DNA from: a virus
Taxonomy: Duplodnaviria > Caudoviricetes
DNA: 64,000 bases
IMG/VR virus record: IMGVR_UViG_3300037067_021792
Direction: 5' to 3' (one strand)
Made by a program: the position numbers and the translations under genes
The notes under the pieces: generated by a model
What the model saw: the letters and a program-made list of their open reading frames with translations, nothing else
What the model was told of the DNA's origin: nothing
The model's database searches: none
Shown here: positions 6,621 through 58,149 of the stretch, piece after piece
Layout: each line of letters opens with the position of its first letter
Numbering within the stretch: position 1 is the stretch's first letter

Positions 6621-6998
6621 ATGAAAATTCGAAACTCTTTTGTAAGTAATAGTTCATCTTGTTCGTTTATTATTGACAATCGCACGGATCAGATTAAGAC
6701 CTTAGTAGATTTTATTCAAGATAATCCGAACATTTTCGAGCAGTATCTAAAGGAATACGAGGAAGATATTAAAGAAATGGGTTCGGACTGGATGGGCACT
6801 CCTGCCTCTCGACTAACTACGAAGAATTTTTTGAAATCTGCGGCAGAATATGATAAAACAATATTGCCCGGTCGTAATTATTTGACATTCGCCGATGATA
6901 GTGGTGATTTTGCGGAATATGTATTACACACCATGCTTTCCGATGTAAAATCAAGCAATAAAAATTGGCACTGGGAATTTTATGAATCCTACCACTGA
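6621..6998 (+). CDS. MKIRxxFVSNSSS-family protein (paralog 1)
   Basis: N-terminus MKIRNSFVSNSSSCSFII. Confidence 0.75.
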   Translation: MKIRNSFVSNSSSCSFIIDNRTDQIKTLVDFIQDNPNIFEQYLKEYEEDIKEMGSDWMGTPASRLTTKNFLKSAAEYDKTILPGRNYLTFADDSGDFAEYVLHTMLSDVKSSNKNWHWEFYESYH

Positions 6999-7696
6999 AA
7001 AACTTTGTCCTACTTGTGGACAAGCAACGGAACATATTATTTATATGTGTGAAGTGGAATGCTGTTCTAGCCCTGCTGATTATGAAGGATGGTGGCGAGT
7101 TATAGATGGTTTCGGGATTAAAACAGGATTAATGCAGAGGAGGAAAGTATGTCAACATCATAGGTATTTGTTGATAGGGAAAGGAGATCAATAATGGAAT
7201 ACTATGGTGATATTTATGCTACAGTTAAATTAAGAATGCGAATTCAGATTGAAGCTAATGAAGAGCCTAGTCCAGAGGATATTCTGTCGGCTTTACGAGG
7301 AGATGAAGACTCGGATAATTTAGTAGAAATTATCGATATTGTTGATGATGAGATAGTAGAACATATTTCAATCGATGAAATCGATATTCATGAATCTTCT
7401 GTGGAAGATGACACCGAAGACGACTAATTTTTAGGAGAAATATATGAGAAATAATAAGATAGCTATTTTTGTCATCAGTTTAGGTTTGCTTTTGTGCTCA
7501 GGATGCGATTTTATGGAGCAAATGTTGTCGGACATTGATGGGTGGGATTTATCAGTGTGTGCGAATTATCCAGGGGCTTGCTGGGAATGCTATTGGGATA
7601 ATGTTGACAAAGTTTTAGAAGCCCAATAAGAGAATGCCGAGAAAAATCAAATATTTTCGGCTAAAAAGGTTTATAACGCAGAAGCTCATTGATATA

Positions 7697-28861: not shown

Positions 28862-28888
28862 GTAATTGGAGAAAATCGGAGAAATTTG

Positions 28889-29596
28889 ATGGATCTAATA
28901 GTAAAACCCATAAATCAATGTATAAGTAAATTTGCGCAACAATCTGGCAATCCTTTTGTCGGGGTTCCTGGCACTCCAAATTTGCCTCCTGCCGCTCCTG
29001 CGCCTGCTCCGGCTGCACCTGCTCCGGCTGCACCTGCTCCGGCTGCAGTTGCTACTCCTGCTGCTGGTGGTGGTGCTGCCCAAATGCTTCGGGATGCTAT
29101 TAAATCATTCGGCAATATATTGAATAATCAATTGATTAGACCATATAACAAAGCTATTCAGGAAGCATTAGCAGCTTTAAAATATTTGTCAAGCGTTAAC
29201 CCGCAGTCAATAAGTCCTCAAATCACTCAACAAGTGTATTCAGTTGTTAATATGCTGAATCAAATGAGCGCTACAACCCAAAAAGACTCTGCGTTGGCGT
29301 CACAATTAGTGCAGGGGATTCAGCAATTGATGATGTCGATTAAAAGGTCTTTTGGTACAATGGAGCGAAGCCCTGAGTATACTAAGGCGCTACAGGATAT
29401 CCAGCGGCAATATGCCCAAAGACAACCACAGGCACCACAATTGCAAGCGCCGCGGACACAAAATCCAGGATTATGGCAAAGAATGCAGCAAGGCTTACAG
29501 AATTGGATACAGCCCGGAACAGCCCGAGCCAAAACAGATAGTTCAATTAAAATTAGCGCCCAGATGGGATCGGTAAATTCAATTATCGAAAAATAA
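28889..29596 (+). CDS. Ala/Pro/Gln-rich protein, candidate internal virion protein
   Basis: KFAQQ and KISAQ motifs; 15-bp CCTGCTCCGGCTGCA repeated 3 times encoding PAPAA. Confidence 0.6.
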   Translation: MDLIVKPINQCISKFAQQSGNPFVGVPGTPNLPPAAPAPAPAAPAPAAPAPAAVATPAAGGGAAQMLRDAIKSFGNILNNQLIRPYNKAIQEALAALKYLSSVNPQSISPQITQQVYSVVNMLNQMSATTQKDSALASQLVQGIQQLMMSIKRSFGTMERSPEYTKALQDIQRQYAQRQPQAPQLQAPRTQNPGLWQRMQQGLQNWIQPGTARAKTDSSIKISAQMGSVNSIIEK

Positions 29597-30669: not shown

Positions 30670-32049
30670 ATGTCTGAACGAGCTTTGCTTGGAACACCGC
30701 CCGTTTCGTTTAACGAAGTAATTAAAGAAGACACGACTATAGAATATGCAATGGTTGTCAAGGCCATTTGTGAACAATATGGGATTAAACCGCAGGATTT
30801 GAGACAAATTACCTACACGTATACTACATGGGATGTCAAGAGCGAGAGCAAGATAAGACATATTCGTCAGGTTCCTCACAAAATTTATATCCCAGAATCC
30901 CTAGCACCTAATACCAGGGATGAAAATGAGACTCCGGTTCTAAACTTAACCATGTCTCCAAATCCGACATTAGATGACCCATATGATGCCGGAATACACG
31001 AATATGAAATTAATGCCAACAGGGGCAAAATTCGAATGTGGAGATGGAGAGGATTCCGTAATTATGCGCCTCTGGGAAGCTACGTGGAATTTGTTGAGCA
31101 TTGCAATTTGAAGAAGTTTTATCGATTTATTTTAGAGAGCCAAAATGATATTCCAGATGCCCTTCAACCTGTTCTAGAGCCTGAAAAATTACGAGATATT
31201 TATGCGAATAGTATCGGGTTTCTTGAACGAGGCCAGTCGATGCTTAAGACATATAAAGAGCACAATATACCCTGCAAGAGAGGATTGCTATTAGCCGGAT
31301 GTCCCGGCGGGGGAAAAACGTATACTTGCAAGTGGCTGCGACAATTATGTGTTAGGAAAGGATTTGATTATAAAGTTGTTACTTTCGAGGATTACCGTAA
31401 TGCTTTGTCTCGTGGCACTGTTAGTAGCTTATTTAGGTTAGCTCCAGGAGAATGGGGTATTATCTTTTTTGATGACATGGAAATGGCCTTACAGCCTAAA
31501 AGCTCGGGAAATACTCATGTTAACACATTCTTAACTGAACTAGATGGAATCGAGCCCACAGAGGGTATAGTATATATATTTACATCTAACCAAATAGAAG
31601 ATCTCGATACAGCTTTTGTTCGTCCTGGTCGTATTGACGTATTTATGATTTTTCAAGCACCAAATAAAAAATTAAGAAGAGTATATATTGAGAATCGTTT
31701 TCACGCCGATTTGCTAAAAACATTAGGTGCTAACATTGCGAACAAAGACGATGAAATTATTAAAGATATTATAAATAGGACCGAAAGCTATACATTTGCC
31801 GAAATCGAGGAAGTGCGTAAATTGATGACTATTGATTTTTTGGATGGAAAAGAAGTTAGTGTAGAAAAAACCTTTAAATTATTTGAAAAACATCGGCAGG
31901 AATTTGCAGATCGGCTTAAATTCGGGTTTGGAAAAATGGGCGAAAGCGCAGATGATTATGACGGAGACTGCGGAGAAGATTGGGCGTCCGAATTTGTTCT
32001 TCCGCCGCCATATAGTCCTGTTGACCTTCTTCGCCGGAGGATGACGTGA
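30670..32049 (+). CDS. AAA+ ATPase
   Basis: KRGLLLAGCPGGGKT, IFFDD, FLTELDG, TSN..LDTAFVRPGRID. Confidence 0.9.
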   Translation: MSERALLGTPPVSFNEVIKEDTTIEYAMVVKAICEQYGIKPQDLRQITYTYTTWDVKSESKIRHIRQVPHKIYIPESLAPNTRDENETPVLNLTMSPNPTLDDPYDAGIHEYEINANRGKIRMWRWRGFRNYAPLGSYVEFVEHCNLKKFYRFILESQNDIPDALQPVLEPEKLRDIYANSIGFLERGQSMLKTYKEHNIPCKRGLLLAGCPGGGKTYTCKWLRQLCVRKGFDYKVVTFEDYRNALSRGTVSSLFRLAPGEWGIIFFDDMEMALQPKSSGNTHVNTFLTELDGIEPTEGIVYIFTSNQIEDLDTAFVRPGRIDVFMIFQAPNKKLRRVYIENRFHADLLKTLGANIANKDDEIIKDIINRTESYTFAEIEEVRKLMTIDFLDGKEVSVEKTFKLFEKHRQEFADRLKFGFGKMGESADDYDGDCGEDWASEFVLPPPYSPVDLLRRRMT

Positions 32050-32357: not shown

Positions 32358-32407
32358 CCATCTTTGGTTCCCAAGTCTGTGATGGGGATTCCTAGCACCT
32401 AATATAA

Positions 32408-32475
32408 CGCACCCAGTAGGAGTCGAACCTACTTTGACAGAGTTAGAATCTGCTAGCTCCCACGAGCATAGGTGC
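32408..32475 (-). tRNA. Amber-suppressor tRNA (anticodon CUA) with tRNA-Pyl-like compact architecture; CCA not encoded
   Basis: GCACCTA-T-GCTC-GTGG-GAGC-TA-GCAGA-TTCTAAC-TCTGT-CAAA-GTAGG-TTCGACT-CCTAC-TGGGTGC-G; all four stems pair. Confidence 0.85.
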
Positions 32476-32507
32476 AAAAATGGCCGTGAATTTTAATTTC
32501 GCGGCCA
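32476..32507 (-). terminator. Intrinsic terminator after hsp20, directly abutting the tRNA 5' end
   Basis: TGGCCGCGAA/TTCACGGCCA stem followed by TTTTT on minus strand. Confidence 0.7.
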
Positions 32508-32516
32508 TTAACTTAA

Positions 32517-32960
32517 TCAGTCTGTCTTGACCGGAATTTGTTTCCGGTCAGAACCATTTGCAATCTTAGGGCAAGTTACCGATAGGACTCCATCTCGGAG
32601 CGATGCAGATATCTGGTCTTTGTCTACATTAGGCATGTAGTAAGACCTTGTGCTCTTGCCATAATATCGCTCTTTGTGTCGAGATTGTCCTTCCTCGTTA
32701 TCCTTTCTGGTTTCAGATGTAATAGTTAAAGTATTATCGCCATATTCGACTTTTATGTCTGTTTCCTTTGTGCCTGGTACTTCGGCTTTGACTGTGAACG
32801 AACGGTCACTTTCACTAAAGTCTGAAACAATACTAGTAGTTGGCCAATTCCAGTCCGGCCATCCCAGCATTATATCAGCAAGACCCCGCTCAAAAACAAA
32901 TCCGAACGGGTCATACGAACTAAAGATACCAAGCCTTTGCTTTTTGGATAACTCATTCAT
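32517..32960 (-). CDS. Small heat shock protein Hsp20
   Basis: AEVPG..DIKV..LTI..ERYYG..R..ASLRDGVLSV..PK. Confidence 0.92.
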   Translation of the reverse strand: MNELSKKQRLGIFSSYDPFGFVFERGLADIMLGWPDWNWPTTSIVSDFSESDRSFTVKAEVPGTKETDIKVEYGDNTLTITSETRKDNEEGQSRHKERYYGKSTRSYYMPNVDKDQISASLRDGVLSVTCPKIANGSDRKQIPVKTD

Positions 32961-32987
32961 TTGTTTTCTCCTTTCTTTGTGTGAATT

Positions 32988-34616
32988 TTACATGCCGTCC
33001 ATTTGTGGATGTTTGTCATTCTCTTCTTTGGGCACATCGGCGACTACAACGTTTGTAGTCAAAAGCAAGCCACCGATACTCGCTGCATTTTGTAGGGCAC
33101 ATCGTTCTACTTTAACTGGCACCAATACACCCATCGAAACAAGATTTCCATATTGCCCGGTTAGGGCATTATACCCGAAATTAGGGTCAGTAGAATTTTG
33201 TACTTTCTCCAACACAATTGCGCCTTCAACGCCAGCATTAAGGGTTATCTGGCGTATTGGAGCACATAGGGCTCGCTTAACAATGTCCACGCCTGTTTTC
33301 TCGTCTAGCGTGAGAGAATTATCATTAAGTAAATCATTCAGCGCCCTTGTTGCCCTTACTGGTGCAACTCCACCACCAGGCAAAACACCTTCCTGCACGG
33401 CCGCTCGGCACGCGTGAAGGGCATCATCAATGCGGGCTTTCTTTTCCTTCATTTCTGTTTCAGTCGCAGCACCAACATTGATCTGGGCAACACCACCTGA
33501 AAGCTTTGCTAGCCGTTCTTCTAACTTCTCTTTGTCGTAATCGCTATTACTTGATTCGATAGCAGATTTAATCTGATTAATGCGCCCCTTAATTGCTTCA
33601 GGGTTACCTGCTCCATCGACAATAGTAGTATCATCCTTGGTGATTTTGACTTTCTTGGCTGCTCCAAGAATTTCAAGTCCTAGATTTTCGAGCTTTTCAC
33701 CAAGTTCTCCAGTGATGGCTCTGGCACCAGTTAGAATGGCAATATCTTCGAGCATTGCCTTTCTACGATCGCCAAAACTAGGTGCTTTTGTGGCACAGCA
33801 TTTAAGAGTTCCACGAAGTTTATTGACAACTAGAGTTGCCAACGCTTCACCTTCGATATCCTCGGCGACAATCAGTATTGACTTATTTGCTTGTGATACT
33901 TGTTCGAGTATTTTTACGATATCTTTGACGGTTGTTAGCTTTTTGTCATACAGAAAAATGTATGGTTCTTCGAGTTCGCACTCCATTGTTTCAAGGTCAG
34001 TAGCAAAATGCGGAGATTTATATCCTTTATCAAATTGCATTCCTTCAACTAGCTCTACATATGTATCAACTGTTGTGCCTTCTTCGATAGTAATAACACC
34101 GTCTTTCCCGACTTTATCCATAGCTTCTGCAATTTGCTCACCAATGGCTGCATCCTGGTTGGCTGCACTGGTTCCAACCTGCGCTATTTGTTTTGTGTCG
34201 GTTACGTCAATTTTCATTTTCTTAAATTCTTCGACAACAACTTCGACTGCCTTGTCGATACCTCGTTTAAGGCTCATTGAATCAGCGCCAGCTACAACGT
34301 TCTTGAGCCCTTCCTCAAATATCGCTTCTGCATAAATCGTAGCAGTTGTTGTTCCGTCGCCCGCAGTATTGGAAGTTTTATTGGCAACCTCTTTGACCAT
34401 TTGGGCACCAACATCCTCGTAAGGATCTTTTAGATCAATTTCGTTAGCTACGGTTACACCATCTTTGGTGATAACAGGTGTGCCGAAGTCTTTCTTGATG
34501 ATTACATTGCGGCCACGAGGCCCTAGAGTTTCTTTGACTGCCCGAGCAAGTTTCTTTACACCATTACGAATGGACTCTCTGGCTTGTTGATCATAAAGCA
34601 TTTCTTTTGCGCTCAT
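32988..34616 (-). CDS. groL: Chaperonin GroEL
   Basis: [36 protein letters not shown]. Confidence 0.98.
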
Positions 34617-34629
34617 TCATTTTCTCCTT

Positions 34630-34944
34630 TTACTCTTTGACTACACAGAAAATTTCGTTTTCGCTTAGTAGTAGATATTTTTCACCGCAACATTCGAATT
34701 CATTTCCGGAGTATTTGGCAAAAACAACCTTATCGCCGGGTTGTAGCACTAATTTTGTTATCGTGCCATCAGAATTTAGAATCCCTTCGCCAACTGCCAA
34801 CACAGTTCCAACAACTGGCCTCTCTTTGGCATCATCTGGTAGATATAGCCCACCTTCTGTTTTTTGAGGCTCCTCGTCTCGCTTGACTACAATTTTGTCT
34901 CGAATTGGTTGCAACTTGCAATTACATTTACACTGATTTTCCAT
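34630..34944 (-). CDS. groS: Co-chaperonin GroES
   Basis: LQPIRDKIVV, KTEGGLYLPD.AKERP, GDKVVFAKYSG. Confidence 0.95.
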   Translation of the reverse strand: MENQCKCNCKLQPIRDKIVVKRDEEPQKTEGGLYLPDDAKERPVVGTVLAVGEGILNSDGTITKLVLQPGDKVVFAKYSGNEFECCGEKYLLLSENEIFCVVKE

Positions 34945-34959
34945 CTTGCTTTTCTCCTT

Positions 34960-35472
34960 TTATCTGAACATGATGAATTTGTGTGTTGATTTAAAATCGT
35001 TCCAAAGTTTTTTGACTCCACTATTATCGGAATATGCCCGAAACACATCCATAATAATAGCGTGAGTTCGTTCTGCTGCTTGTGACAATTCCATTAATAA
35101 TTGTATATCACTTAACCTGATATGTTTAATAGAGTTACAACTTAAAATAAGTAGATGATCACCGGGAAAAAATTCGTTGTGCTGATGTTTGAAATTTTCT
35201 TTTTGATGTCCGGGGGTGATAACGATAGCACTTCTTTCGTGGGCAATTAAATGTGTTAATAAAGTTGAACCAGTTCCCCTTGGAATTTGGAATTGCAAAG
35301 TTTGTTCATCTTCTACTATATATTCTGAAAGTGGCTTATAATCATCCAGGAAGCTGTCAATAACATTTTTAATATGCACGAGAAACGGGGATACTTCTGA
35401 TAGGTTGGGGAAATTCTGATATGAGTTTTCTTTATCTGTCATTTGGGACATCTCCCACAAATCTGCGGACAT
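34960..35472 (-). CDS. Hypothetical protein, possibly a degenerate P-loop
   Basis: PRGTGST motif; TTGAAA..TATAAT promoter upstream on minus strand. Confidence 0.55.
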   Translation of the reverse strand: MSADLWEMSQMTDKENSYQNFPNLSEVSPFLVHIKNVIDSFLDDYKPLSEYIVEDEQTLQFQIPRGTGSTLLTHLIAHERSAIVITPGHQKENFKHQHNEFFPGDHLLILSCNSIKHIRLSDIQLLMELSQAAERTHAIIMDVFRAYSDNSGVKKLWNDFKSTHKFIMFR

Positions 35473-35524
35473 CTCCGCTTCTGCAATATTATACAGCGTA
35501 TTTTTGATTTTTCAAGAAAATTTC

Positions 35525-56765: not shown

Positions 56766-58149
56766 ATCAACTACCCAACCGCTAAAGACGGTCGGGTTTG
56801 CTCCTTAACAGGAACGATTGGCTAGTTGATAGTAGCCTGCCCATCAGGTTTAATCTGCCGCGTAGCGGCAAATTAAAGGAGACAGGGTGTTTAGCTCCTT
56901 TCGCTTCTTGAGTCTGAACATACTTACGAGCTATATTAATAGCAGCATTCCAGTCTGCATCAAATATTACTCCATCAGAAGCGTTGAACCTACATCCCTT
57001 CCGCTCTCCTCCAGCCAGACCACGATGGTCTCTTTGACTAGTATAAGCAGGGTTAACCGTTTTAATCCTCTTCCCTCGAATAGGTGCCTTGTAGGTCAGG
57101 ATGCTCAACAGCATCCCAAAAGGAACTTGACTAAGTCTATTTTTGGAAGATTTACTCTTCTTGTAATTGTTCTTTCTCAAGTTCTTCTTTTTGAGATTGG
57201 ACAAGTCTTCCAAAACAATCGTGTTGGAACTGGCCTCAAGAATTTTGTTAGCCAGATGATGAGACATGTTCCTATTTTTGTTTCTCTCTTGTCTGCGTAT
57301 CTTATGGAGCTTCCTTTTGGAAGAATGAGAATTAGTCTTCTTCCTCTTGGAATTGAGGACTCTTTTAAGATAACGTAGAGCCCGTTTTTGTTGGAGGAAG
57401 TCTTTGTCAGTGAGAGCCAAACCTTCTGATGTGACAGCAAAACGACGTTCGCCAAGGTCCACACCAATACAGGTATTCTCTACAAAAGTAGGCTCAGGAA
57501 CCTCAAAGGAGATTGACAGCCAGAACTGATTGTCTCTGACAAAAACGAGTGGATCACAAGCAGAATACTTTGAGAATAGTTCCTCGAACTTATCATAAGG
57601 CTGGTAGGAACAGATAATACGTTTGCCAGTCGTGGTGAGTTTAATCTGATTATTATCTAGGAAGGTGTAAAGTCTCTTGTCTAGGCGGATGCTTAGGTTA
57701 GTTTGTTGACAAGGTTCTTTTAACTGACTGAGCATTTTACTGGTTTTGAGAGCTTTGTAGGTAGCGTAGACTGAGTTGATAGCTCGTATAATAACTTGTG
57801 AGGGAGCGTTAGGAAAGAGTTTTCTGCACTGGTGATAGTTAGCATCCTGAATATGCTTTTTGTCGAGCTTCTGTCGTTTGAAGGTGTCAACGGATATATG
57901 GTTCCAAGCCTTTTGGTGCTCCAAAAGTGTTGATAAGAGGAGATTGTGGTCCTCTTGGGAGTTGAAGGAGAGTTTGATGTTGTAGGTTATATTGCTCACA
58001 ATTGTTACTTACGGAATGATTATACAAGTTCCTTTGTGGAATTTGAAAAATTAGGAATTATTTTCAAGGAGGCGGATTGCTAACTCCTTGGCTAAAGACC
58101 AAGGAGCTTCCGCAATCCGAACATAGTGAAACGGGTTCGTATGCCCGGT
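56766..58149 (-). mobile_element. TnpB-only IS200/IS605-family element (IS1341-like)
   Basis: Subterminal hairpins with identical loop CTAAAGA near 56774-56796 and 58084-58106; right end GGGTAGTTGAT; no tnpA. Confidence 0.78.
56782..57999 (-). CDS. tnpB: TnpB RNA-guided nuclease
   Basis: IGVDLG, IVLEDL, VNPAYTSQ, DADWNAAINI. Confidence 0.92.
   Translation of the reverse strand: MSNITYNIKLSFNSQEDHNLLLSTLLEHQKAWNHISVDTFKRQKLDKKHIQDANYHQCRKLFPNAPSQVIIRAINSVYATYKALKTSKMLSQLKEPCQQTNLSIRLDKRLYTFLDNNQIKLTTTGKRIICSYQPYDKFEELFSKYSACDPLVFVRDNQFWLSISFEVPEPTFVENTCIGVDLGERRFAVTSEGLALTDKDFLQQKRALRYLKRVLNSKRKKTNSHSSKRKLHKIRRQERNKNRNMSHHLANKILEASSNTIVLEDLSNLKKKNLRKNNYKKSKSSKNRLSQVPFGMLLSILTYKAPIRGKRIKTVNPAYTSQRDHRGLAGGERKGCRFNASDGVIFDADWNAAINIARKYVQTQEAKGAKHPVSFNLPLRGRLNLMGRLLSTSQSFLLRSKPDRL

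Follow-up and report, generated by a model that had tools for sequence, protein, structure and literature searches.

The window, as we call the whole 64-kb stretch of phage DNA analysed here, carries a chaperone operon on its minus strand. The operon runs from a promoter-like site through an ORF of 170 amino acids, groES, groEL and hsp20 to a hairpin with a U-run, which is followed directly by base 1 of a tRNA with the anticodon CUA. An AAA+ ATPase gene on the plus strand converges on the tRNA. These features, together with two further genes of the window, are:

807–2672: dnaK, part of the chaperone set (Pfam HSP70, 833 bits)
30670–32049, plus strand: AAA+ ATPase gene, convergent with the tRNA (Pfam PF00004)
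32408–32475, minus strand: compact tRNA of 68 nt, anticodon CUA, G73, CCA not encoded (ARAGORN, Rfam RF00005, minimum-energy fold and parsed stems)
32476–32506, minus strand: putative intrinsic terminator of hsp20, hairpin and U-run, GGCCGCGAA-loop-UUCACGGCC AUUUUU (read from the sequence)
32517–32960, minus strand: hsp20, small heat-shock protein, last gene of the operon (Pfam PF00011, E = 6e-21)
32988–34616, minus strand: groEL (Pfam PF00118, E = 4e-71)
34630–34944, minus strand: groES (Pfam PF00166, E = 1e-28)
35486–35515, minus strand: sigma-70-like promoter, TTGAAA-16-TATAAT, 11 of 12 matches (consensus scan, pattern match only)
56782–57999, minus strand: tnpB (OrfB_IS605 and Cas12f-like TNB)

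The promoter-like site at 35515–35486 was the sole strong one found by the consensus scan upstream of the tRNA. The hairpin behind hsp20 abuts the first base of the tRNA; it was overlooked by our terminator scan because of its long loop and a mismatch in its stem. Its sequence makes it a likely intrinsic terminator, one that has to be read through for the tRNA to be synthesized. The same layout of terminator and then tRNA recurs in five loci of related phages (L085, L082, L087, L083 and L086), and the tRNA copies behind hsp20 start within a few bases of the U-run.

The window belongs to a jumbo phage genome of about 268–270 kb. A 268,137-bp ENA metagenome contig bears the same DNA at 99.9% identity, and the same proteins are found on a 270,634-bp contig. 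Compared over 20.4 kb, the window and the ENA contig differ by no more than a single 15-bp indel in the region of 29032, inside a 236-aa ORF (28886–29596). The gene content includes DnaK, GroES, GroEL, Hsp20, a clamp loader, a sliding clamp, a PARP, an NAD synthase, TnpB and many ORFs without a family; the phage thus encodes a full chaperone set, with DnaK at 807–2672 and GroES, GroEL and Hsp20 at 32517–35472. A tnpB gene is also present in a relative represented by a 326.8-kb contig (L082:372–1508). In a large protein database, the nearest named homologues of the GroEL protein come from Phycisphaerae (Planctomycetota), at 65–70% identity, while its matches in IMG/VR are all at 59% identity or below. 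Among genome contigs the matches belong to mixed phyla at 58–63% identity and do not settle the host, which from GroEL similarity, a weak hint, is probably a member of the Planctomycetota or a relative.

The standard code (code 11) fits the window best, giving 96 genes and a coding coverage of 94%, in agreement with the statement of an earlier note on this sequence that the genes are intact in code 11. TAG closes 15 of the 96 genes (16%), TAA 34 and TGA 47. Recoding of TAG was rejected for all the DNA seen, and treating TAG as a sense codon brought no better gene models. In the loci of the relatives, TAG terminates between 1 and 11 genes each and the standard code fits there too. In the 17.5 kb of L082 read, TAG closes 11 of 27 called genes (41%), unusually many for a suppressor-carrying phage; the CUA tRNA of this relative looks partly degraded.

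ARAGORN, the check proposed in the earlier note, called one tRNA in the 64-kb window, at 32407–32476 on the minus strand with the anticodon CTA. The accompanying ‘Pyl’ label is uninformative because every CTA tRNA receives it. The Rfam model RF00005 (gathering cut-off 29 bits) spans 32475–32408 end to end over model positions 1–71, with 36.9 bits and E = 4e-4 for the whole window; this lies at the very bottom of the range for cellular tRNAs, which score 49–75 bits with one outlier at 35.7. The cloverleaf is also the minimum-energy fold (−26.1 kcal/mol, z = −3.35); no shuffled sequence out of 200 was as stable. The element is a genuine tRNA, beyond chance, and the 68-nt minus-strand cloverleaf described in the earlier note is there in every feature.

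The parsed layout likewise agrees with that description, which comprised a 1-nt connector, a 4-nt D loop, a short variable region, G73, a TTCGA T loop and no encoded CCA. The acceptor stem (GCACCUA/UGGGUGC) has 7 bp, including one G.U pair, and begins with G1:C72. A single nucleotide, U8, connects it to the D arm, where four perfect pairs (GCUC/GAGC) close a loop of 4 nt (GUGG); a U follows. The anticodon helix (GCAGA/UCUGU) has five standard pairs and an outermost A.C, the mismatch at the sixth pair that had been noticed before. Then come a variable loop of AAA, a T arm (GUAGG-UUCGACU-CCUAC) with a canonical T loop and the discriminator G73, followed by UUA, hence the absence of an encoded CCA. 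The anticodon loop is UUCUAAC, closed by an A-U pair. A register that would give UCU (Arg) was rejected; it does not pair, and CUA is for that reason the sole consistent reading. The loop is what an amber-suppressor anticodon calls for: 7 nt with CUA at 34–36, U33 and a purine, A37, on the 3′ side. When the anticodon loop was masked and nearest neighbours were sought among 78 typed tRNAs, the isotypes disagreed and the approach was abandoned: the masked matches were Leu, Lys and Arg for the window tRNA, Trp and Arg for its homologue in L085 and Gln for that in L082. An Arg-like trend seen before masking came from the shared UUCUAA loop and from references chosen by pattern search.

The earlier note had likened the architecture to that of the pyrrolysine tRNA. 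For comparison with true tRNA-Pyl, we located PylS (TIGR02367) in Desulfobacterota genomes and read the adjoining tRNA (L189 and L204–L208). The layout of true bacterial tRNA-Pyl is 7/1/4-6-4/1/6-7-6/3/5-7-5/7/G73, plus CCA. The window tRNA aligns without gaps to four of these pylS-adjacent tRNAs, apart from 2 nt of the D loop, which bears out the architectural part of the claim. With the tRNA-Pyl of Desulfitobacterium hafniense and the Desulfobacterota it shares the CUA anticodon, the 1-nt connector, a short D loop, an anticodon helix of six positions, a 3-nt variable loop, G1:C72 and G73; the last two are reportedly acceptor identity elements of tRNA-Pyl. It differs in the A.C at the sixth anticodon pair, in its canonical UUCGA T loop where true members have UGCGA, and in lacking the CCA that is encoded in L189. 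Its overall identity to tRNA-Pyl is 57%, no more than to unrelated tRNAs. The 4-nt loop on a GCUC/GAGC stem is not specific to tRNA-Pyl because an unrelated tRNA-Arg(UCU) of 70 nt on a metagenome contig (L184) has the same D stem, likewise closing a 4-nt loop with GG at its end; that tRNA differs in its two connector bases, its 5-nt variable loop and its sense codon.

RF00005 matches the window tRNA but leaves the true tRNA-Pyl of L189 unmatched even at E ≤ 1, which suggests that Rfam 15 contains no model recognizing tRNA-Pyl. We also scored the sequences with a covariance model, R1, made from three Desulfobacterota tRNA-Pyl. The window tRNA scored 35.2 bits, a canonical homologue from a related phage (L094) 34.2 and the compact homologue of L085 23.7, compared with 96–99 bits for true members; the model is narrow, and the test is weak for that reason. 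No PylS turned up in tblastn searches with two PylS proteins, either in the window, where all matches had E > 0.2, or in the flanks at 13 loci of relatives, about 90 kb in all (best E = 0.25), so the reported absence of pylS from the window stands. Of 91 ORFs taken from five true pyl loci, none matched the window or the relatives' flanks at E ≤ 1e-3, and the window tRNA has no pyl neighbourhood. PylS was present in 2 of 401 Desulfobacterota genomes. A search of 401 genomes from the phylum to which one GroEL-related genome belongs, a phylum that may not be the host's, gave no PylS. Beside a Desulfobacterota pylS we observed a match to PYLIS_2, the mtbB pyrrolysine insertion sequence (66.7 bits, L188:1019–1118), which served as a positive control for a true Pyl locus.

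Relatives of the phage were gathered through homologues of its GroEL and AAA+ ATPase proteins. Their CUA tRNAs, with the identity of the ATPase to that of the window where determined, are:

L085: ATPase 69%; tRNA of 68 nt in the same compact layout, A73, Rfam 30.1 bits
L082 (326.8-kb contig): ATPase 46–47%; tRNA of 69 nt with U.U mismatches in two stems (acceptor and T), 33.7 bits, not called by ARAGORN
L087, L088 and L089: ATPase 43%; canonical tRNA of 71 nt, G73
L083 and L084: canonical CUA tRNA, A73
L086: ATPase 43%; two tandem CUA tRNAs, G73 and A73, 54.7 and 60.5 bits
L094: ATPase 44%; canonical CUA tRNA, A73
L190–L192 (IMG/VR phages): ATPase 30%; canonical CUA tRNA immediately upstream of the ATPase gene

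The syntenic CUA tRNAs are thus mostly canonical, at 71–76 nt. A CUA tRNA lies within about 2.5 kb of the ATPase gene in most relatives examined; in L091 and L093 the ATPase gene is present and no tRNA was found at that place. The ATPase, which has an unknown N-terminal domain, accompanies a CUA tRNA in L082, L085–L087, L094 and L190–L192, even at 30% protein identity. No functional link between the two was found, nor did a Pfam search of the neighbours of the L190 tRNA reveal one.

The region between positions 8 and 26 is 15 nt long in the window tRNA, L085 and L082, as against 18–20 nt in the canonical homologues. Since the short form is confined to these three, the shrinkage arose within their sub-clade. 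Apart from the T arm and the terminal acceptor pair, the only invariant columns among all the homologous tRNAs are the UCUAA of the anticodon loop, and its retention on very different bodies points to selection for UAG decoding. The window tRNA is 74% identical to that of L085 and 67% to that of L082. It differs from the L085 tRNA at 18 of 68 positions, and yet all acceptor, D and T pairs are retained, with three double compensatory changes (C-G to U-A, A-U to G-C and U-A to C-G) and two changes by way of wobble pairs. Paired cells amount to 93% for these two tRNAs compared with 26–45% in slid controls, a difference that with two sequences only is suggestive rather than statistical. Both have the compact D arm, whose four pairs are perfect and whose 4-nt loop has GG at its end. 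The sixth anticodon-stem position is A.C in the window tRNA and A-U in L085, which has two other mismatches. The mismatched stems of L082 suggest that decay may have set in in some lineages.

The discriminator base is G or A among the homologues, a switching which suggests that the identity of the inserted residue may not be critical. Two different tandem CUA tRNAs were observed in each of two unrelated huge phages, the 735-kb phage LR756501 (L203:274–347 and 352–427) and L086 (7811–7882 and 7884–7959); the G73 and A73 pair of the latter suggests that two charging identities could serve one stop codon. Exact and degenerate DNA patterns of the tRNA had no matches in IMG/VR. The same patterns gave seven matches in JGI metagenomes, none of them a complete compact CUA tRNA; three were called tRNA-Arg(UCU) by ARAGORN and two (L182 and L186) are odd CUA tRNA-like 3′ halves. 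In these halves (L182:173–224 and L186:425–482), a compact D arm of GCUC-UCAA-GAGC is followed by a loop of CUCUAAA, containing CUA, and by a T arm; their 3′ acceptor strand, CAGGCGC, resembles that of L087, and no 5′ partner strand is present nearby. The halves form the end of an RNA of about 170 nt that is structured and conserved, and Rfam gives only a partial tRNA match of 28 bits.

Start-proximal in-frame TAG codons were sought as read-through targets in the window and the 13 relatives' loci, yielding two candidates compared with three each for TGA and TAA as controls. The only candidate in the window, ‘MSTS-TAG’ at 7149, lies out of frame inside the ORF 6982–7194 and was dismissed as an artefact. 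No conserved gene was interrupted by TAG only; the stop codons within tblastn matches included TAG, TAA and TGA alike, and we take these matches for shadows of conserved genes, either antisense or out of frame. Two in-frame TAG junctions (20895/20899 and 36127/36128) were also discarded, with no Pfam domain and no excess over TAA and TGA junctions. In the window, genes ending in TAG are in frame with the following gene no more often than those ending in TAA or TGA. When a TAG-ending gene of the window is followed beyond its stop, the next in-frame stop comes after a median of 7 codons.

Our preferred interpretation, which we hold with moderate confidence, is that this is a functional phage amber suppressor at a conserved locus, charged by the host and giving partial read-through of UAG, whose compact shape is convergent on that of tRNA-Pyl. 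A clade of jumbo phages has kept a lineage of CUA tRNAs at one spot, behind the groES-groEL-hsp20 terminator and beside the AAA+ ATPase gene, and in the branch of the window the body of the tRNA has shrunk towards the tRNA-Pyl shape. Of the functions proposed in the earlier note, conditional read-through is the best that remains. We infer that expression depends on read-through of the terminator: transcription would start at the promoter of the chaperone operon and reach the tRNA only when the polymerase passes the hsp20 terminator, so that the level of tRNA would stay low. The transcript would be matured by RNase P and the host CCA-adding enzyme and then charged by a host aminoacyl-tRNA synthetase, where the precedent of amber suppressors suggests Gln for G73 and Lys for A73. 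The charged tRNA would compete with release factor 1 at UAG, leading to partial read-through during infection. Efficient suppression would be costly, as TAG is a common stop (41% in L082), and the phage may tolerate suppression because its own TAG-ending genes soon meet another stop. Suppression might serve to make one particular protein, amber-gated or extended, whose gene lies outside the DNA read, or it might affect termination in general.

An alternative that we regard as unlikely is a decaying or idle remnant, that is, a former suppressor or sense tRNA that has partly lost its D arm and gone out of use in translation. The low Rfam score, the mismatched acceptor and T stems of the L082 homologue and the missing tRNA beside the ATPase genes of L091 and L093 speak for this; the target codon was not found in the DNA examined and the tRNA is located after a terminator. 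However, the four stems of the window tRNA are intact, U33, A37 and the T loop are canonical, and the compact D arm has been kept in L085 despite 18 substitutions elsewhere, with three compensatory pairs. The locus has also been retained where the neighbouring ATPase has diverged to 30–47% identity. We consider it quite improbable that the element is a tRNA-shaped RNA without a role in decoding, whether it would occupy an anticodon nuclease or some other defence aimed at tRNAs, as a decoy or sponge, or would act in the processing or stability of the chaperone mRNA. The tRNA does lie at the 3′ end of the operon transcript and its odd shape could evade synthetases, but the invariant UCUAA core on such different bodies argues for decoding of UAG, and nothing at hand ties the tRNA to a defence gene. 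We know of no nuclease that targets a CUA anticodon, which counts against the decoy raised in the earlier note, an idea that gained no support here.

PylRS ignores the anticodon and reads a compact core, its N-terminal domain is blocked by larger variable loops, and the discriminator base also has a role (PMC11467909). The window tRNA could be a genuine equivalent of tRNA-Pyl, with a PylRS from the host or from the rest of the phage genome charging it with pyrrolysine or a related residue for insertion at UAG. The near gap-free alignment to pylS-linked tRNA-Pyl and the elements it has in common with them, from the 1-nt connector and six-position helix to G1:C72 and G73, favour this, and of the phage itself the search for PylS covered the 64-kb window out of 268–270 kb. 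We nevertheless judge it very improbable. PylS was not found in the window or in the relatives' flanks, the ORFs that flank pylS are unmatched there, and PylS was detected in none of 401 genomes of one candidate host phylum and is rare even in the Desulfobacterota, with 2 of 401. The positional homologues are canonical tRNAs, the closest compact one, in L085, has A73, and the sixth pair and the T loop depart from those of true members. RF00005 recognizes the window tRNA and not a true tRNA-Pyl, and R1 scores the window tRNA about as it does the canonical L094. The link to pyrrolysine made in the earlier note is thus not supported, nor is common descent with tRNA-Pyl. Because the syntenic CUA tRNAs are mostly canonical, the nearest compact relative has A73 and no PylS was found in the window or the relatives' flanks, the compact shape was most likely derived inside a lineage of phage suppressor tRNAs. 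A further possibility, to which we give very little credence, is that the shrinkage was adaptive rather than drift: a Pyl-like core would have evolved independently, hiding the tRNA from most host synthetases and fitting a single dedicated one. The host could supply this synthetase, of the PylRS type or otherwise unusual, or it could be encoded in the remaining 200 kb of the phage. If true, tRNA and synthetase would make up an orthogonal pair of natural origin, distinct from the known pyrrolysine lineages.

With the host-charged suppressor as the preferred reading, the wider interest lies in one locus that can be traced through a clade of jumbo phages while the body of its tRNA was remodelled from 71–76 to 68 nt and its CUA loop stayed fixed, which is direct evidence that decoding of UAG is the selected property. 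Since the end product matches the architecture of tRNA-Pyl, that shape can arise by convergence, and neither the shape nor the ARAGORN label is evidence for pyrrolysine. The constant place behind the chaperone terminator suggests a simple way of dosing a potentially toxic suppressor. A compact natural suppressor of this kind may also offer a scaffold for work on genetic-code expansion.

In crAss-like, Lak and other phages, suppressor tRNAs accompany the recoding of TAG (code 15) and, more rarely, occur in relatives that use the standard code; host GlnRS has been proposed to charge the TAG suppressors (Borges et al., bioRxiv 10.1101/2021.08.26.457843). Among jumbo phages with the standard code, Sinorhizobium phage AP-J-162 is reported to carry CUA tRNAs with the label ‘Pyl’ (PMC11242549). 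Suppressors in standard-code phages are thus already documented; what is new here is a compact structural variant of the phage amber-suppressor tRNA. Like the known examples, it is a phage-encoded tRNA that reads UAG and for which no dedicated synthetase is visible. It differs from them in that TAG is undepleted as a stop (16% in the window and 41% in L082) and in-frame TAG was not seen, in a body that is unusually compact at 68 nt, and in its fixed position behind the terminator of a chaperone operon.
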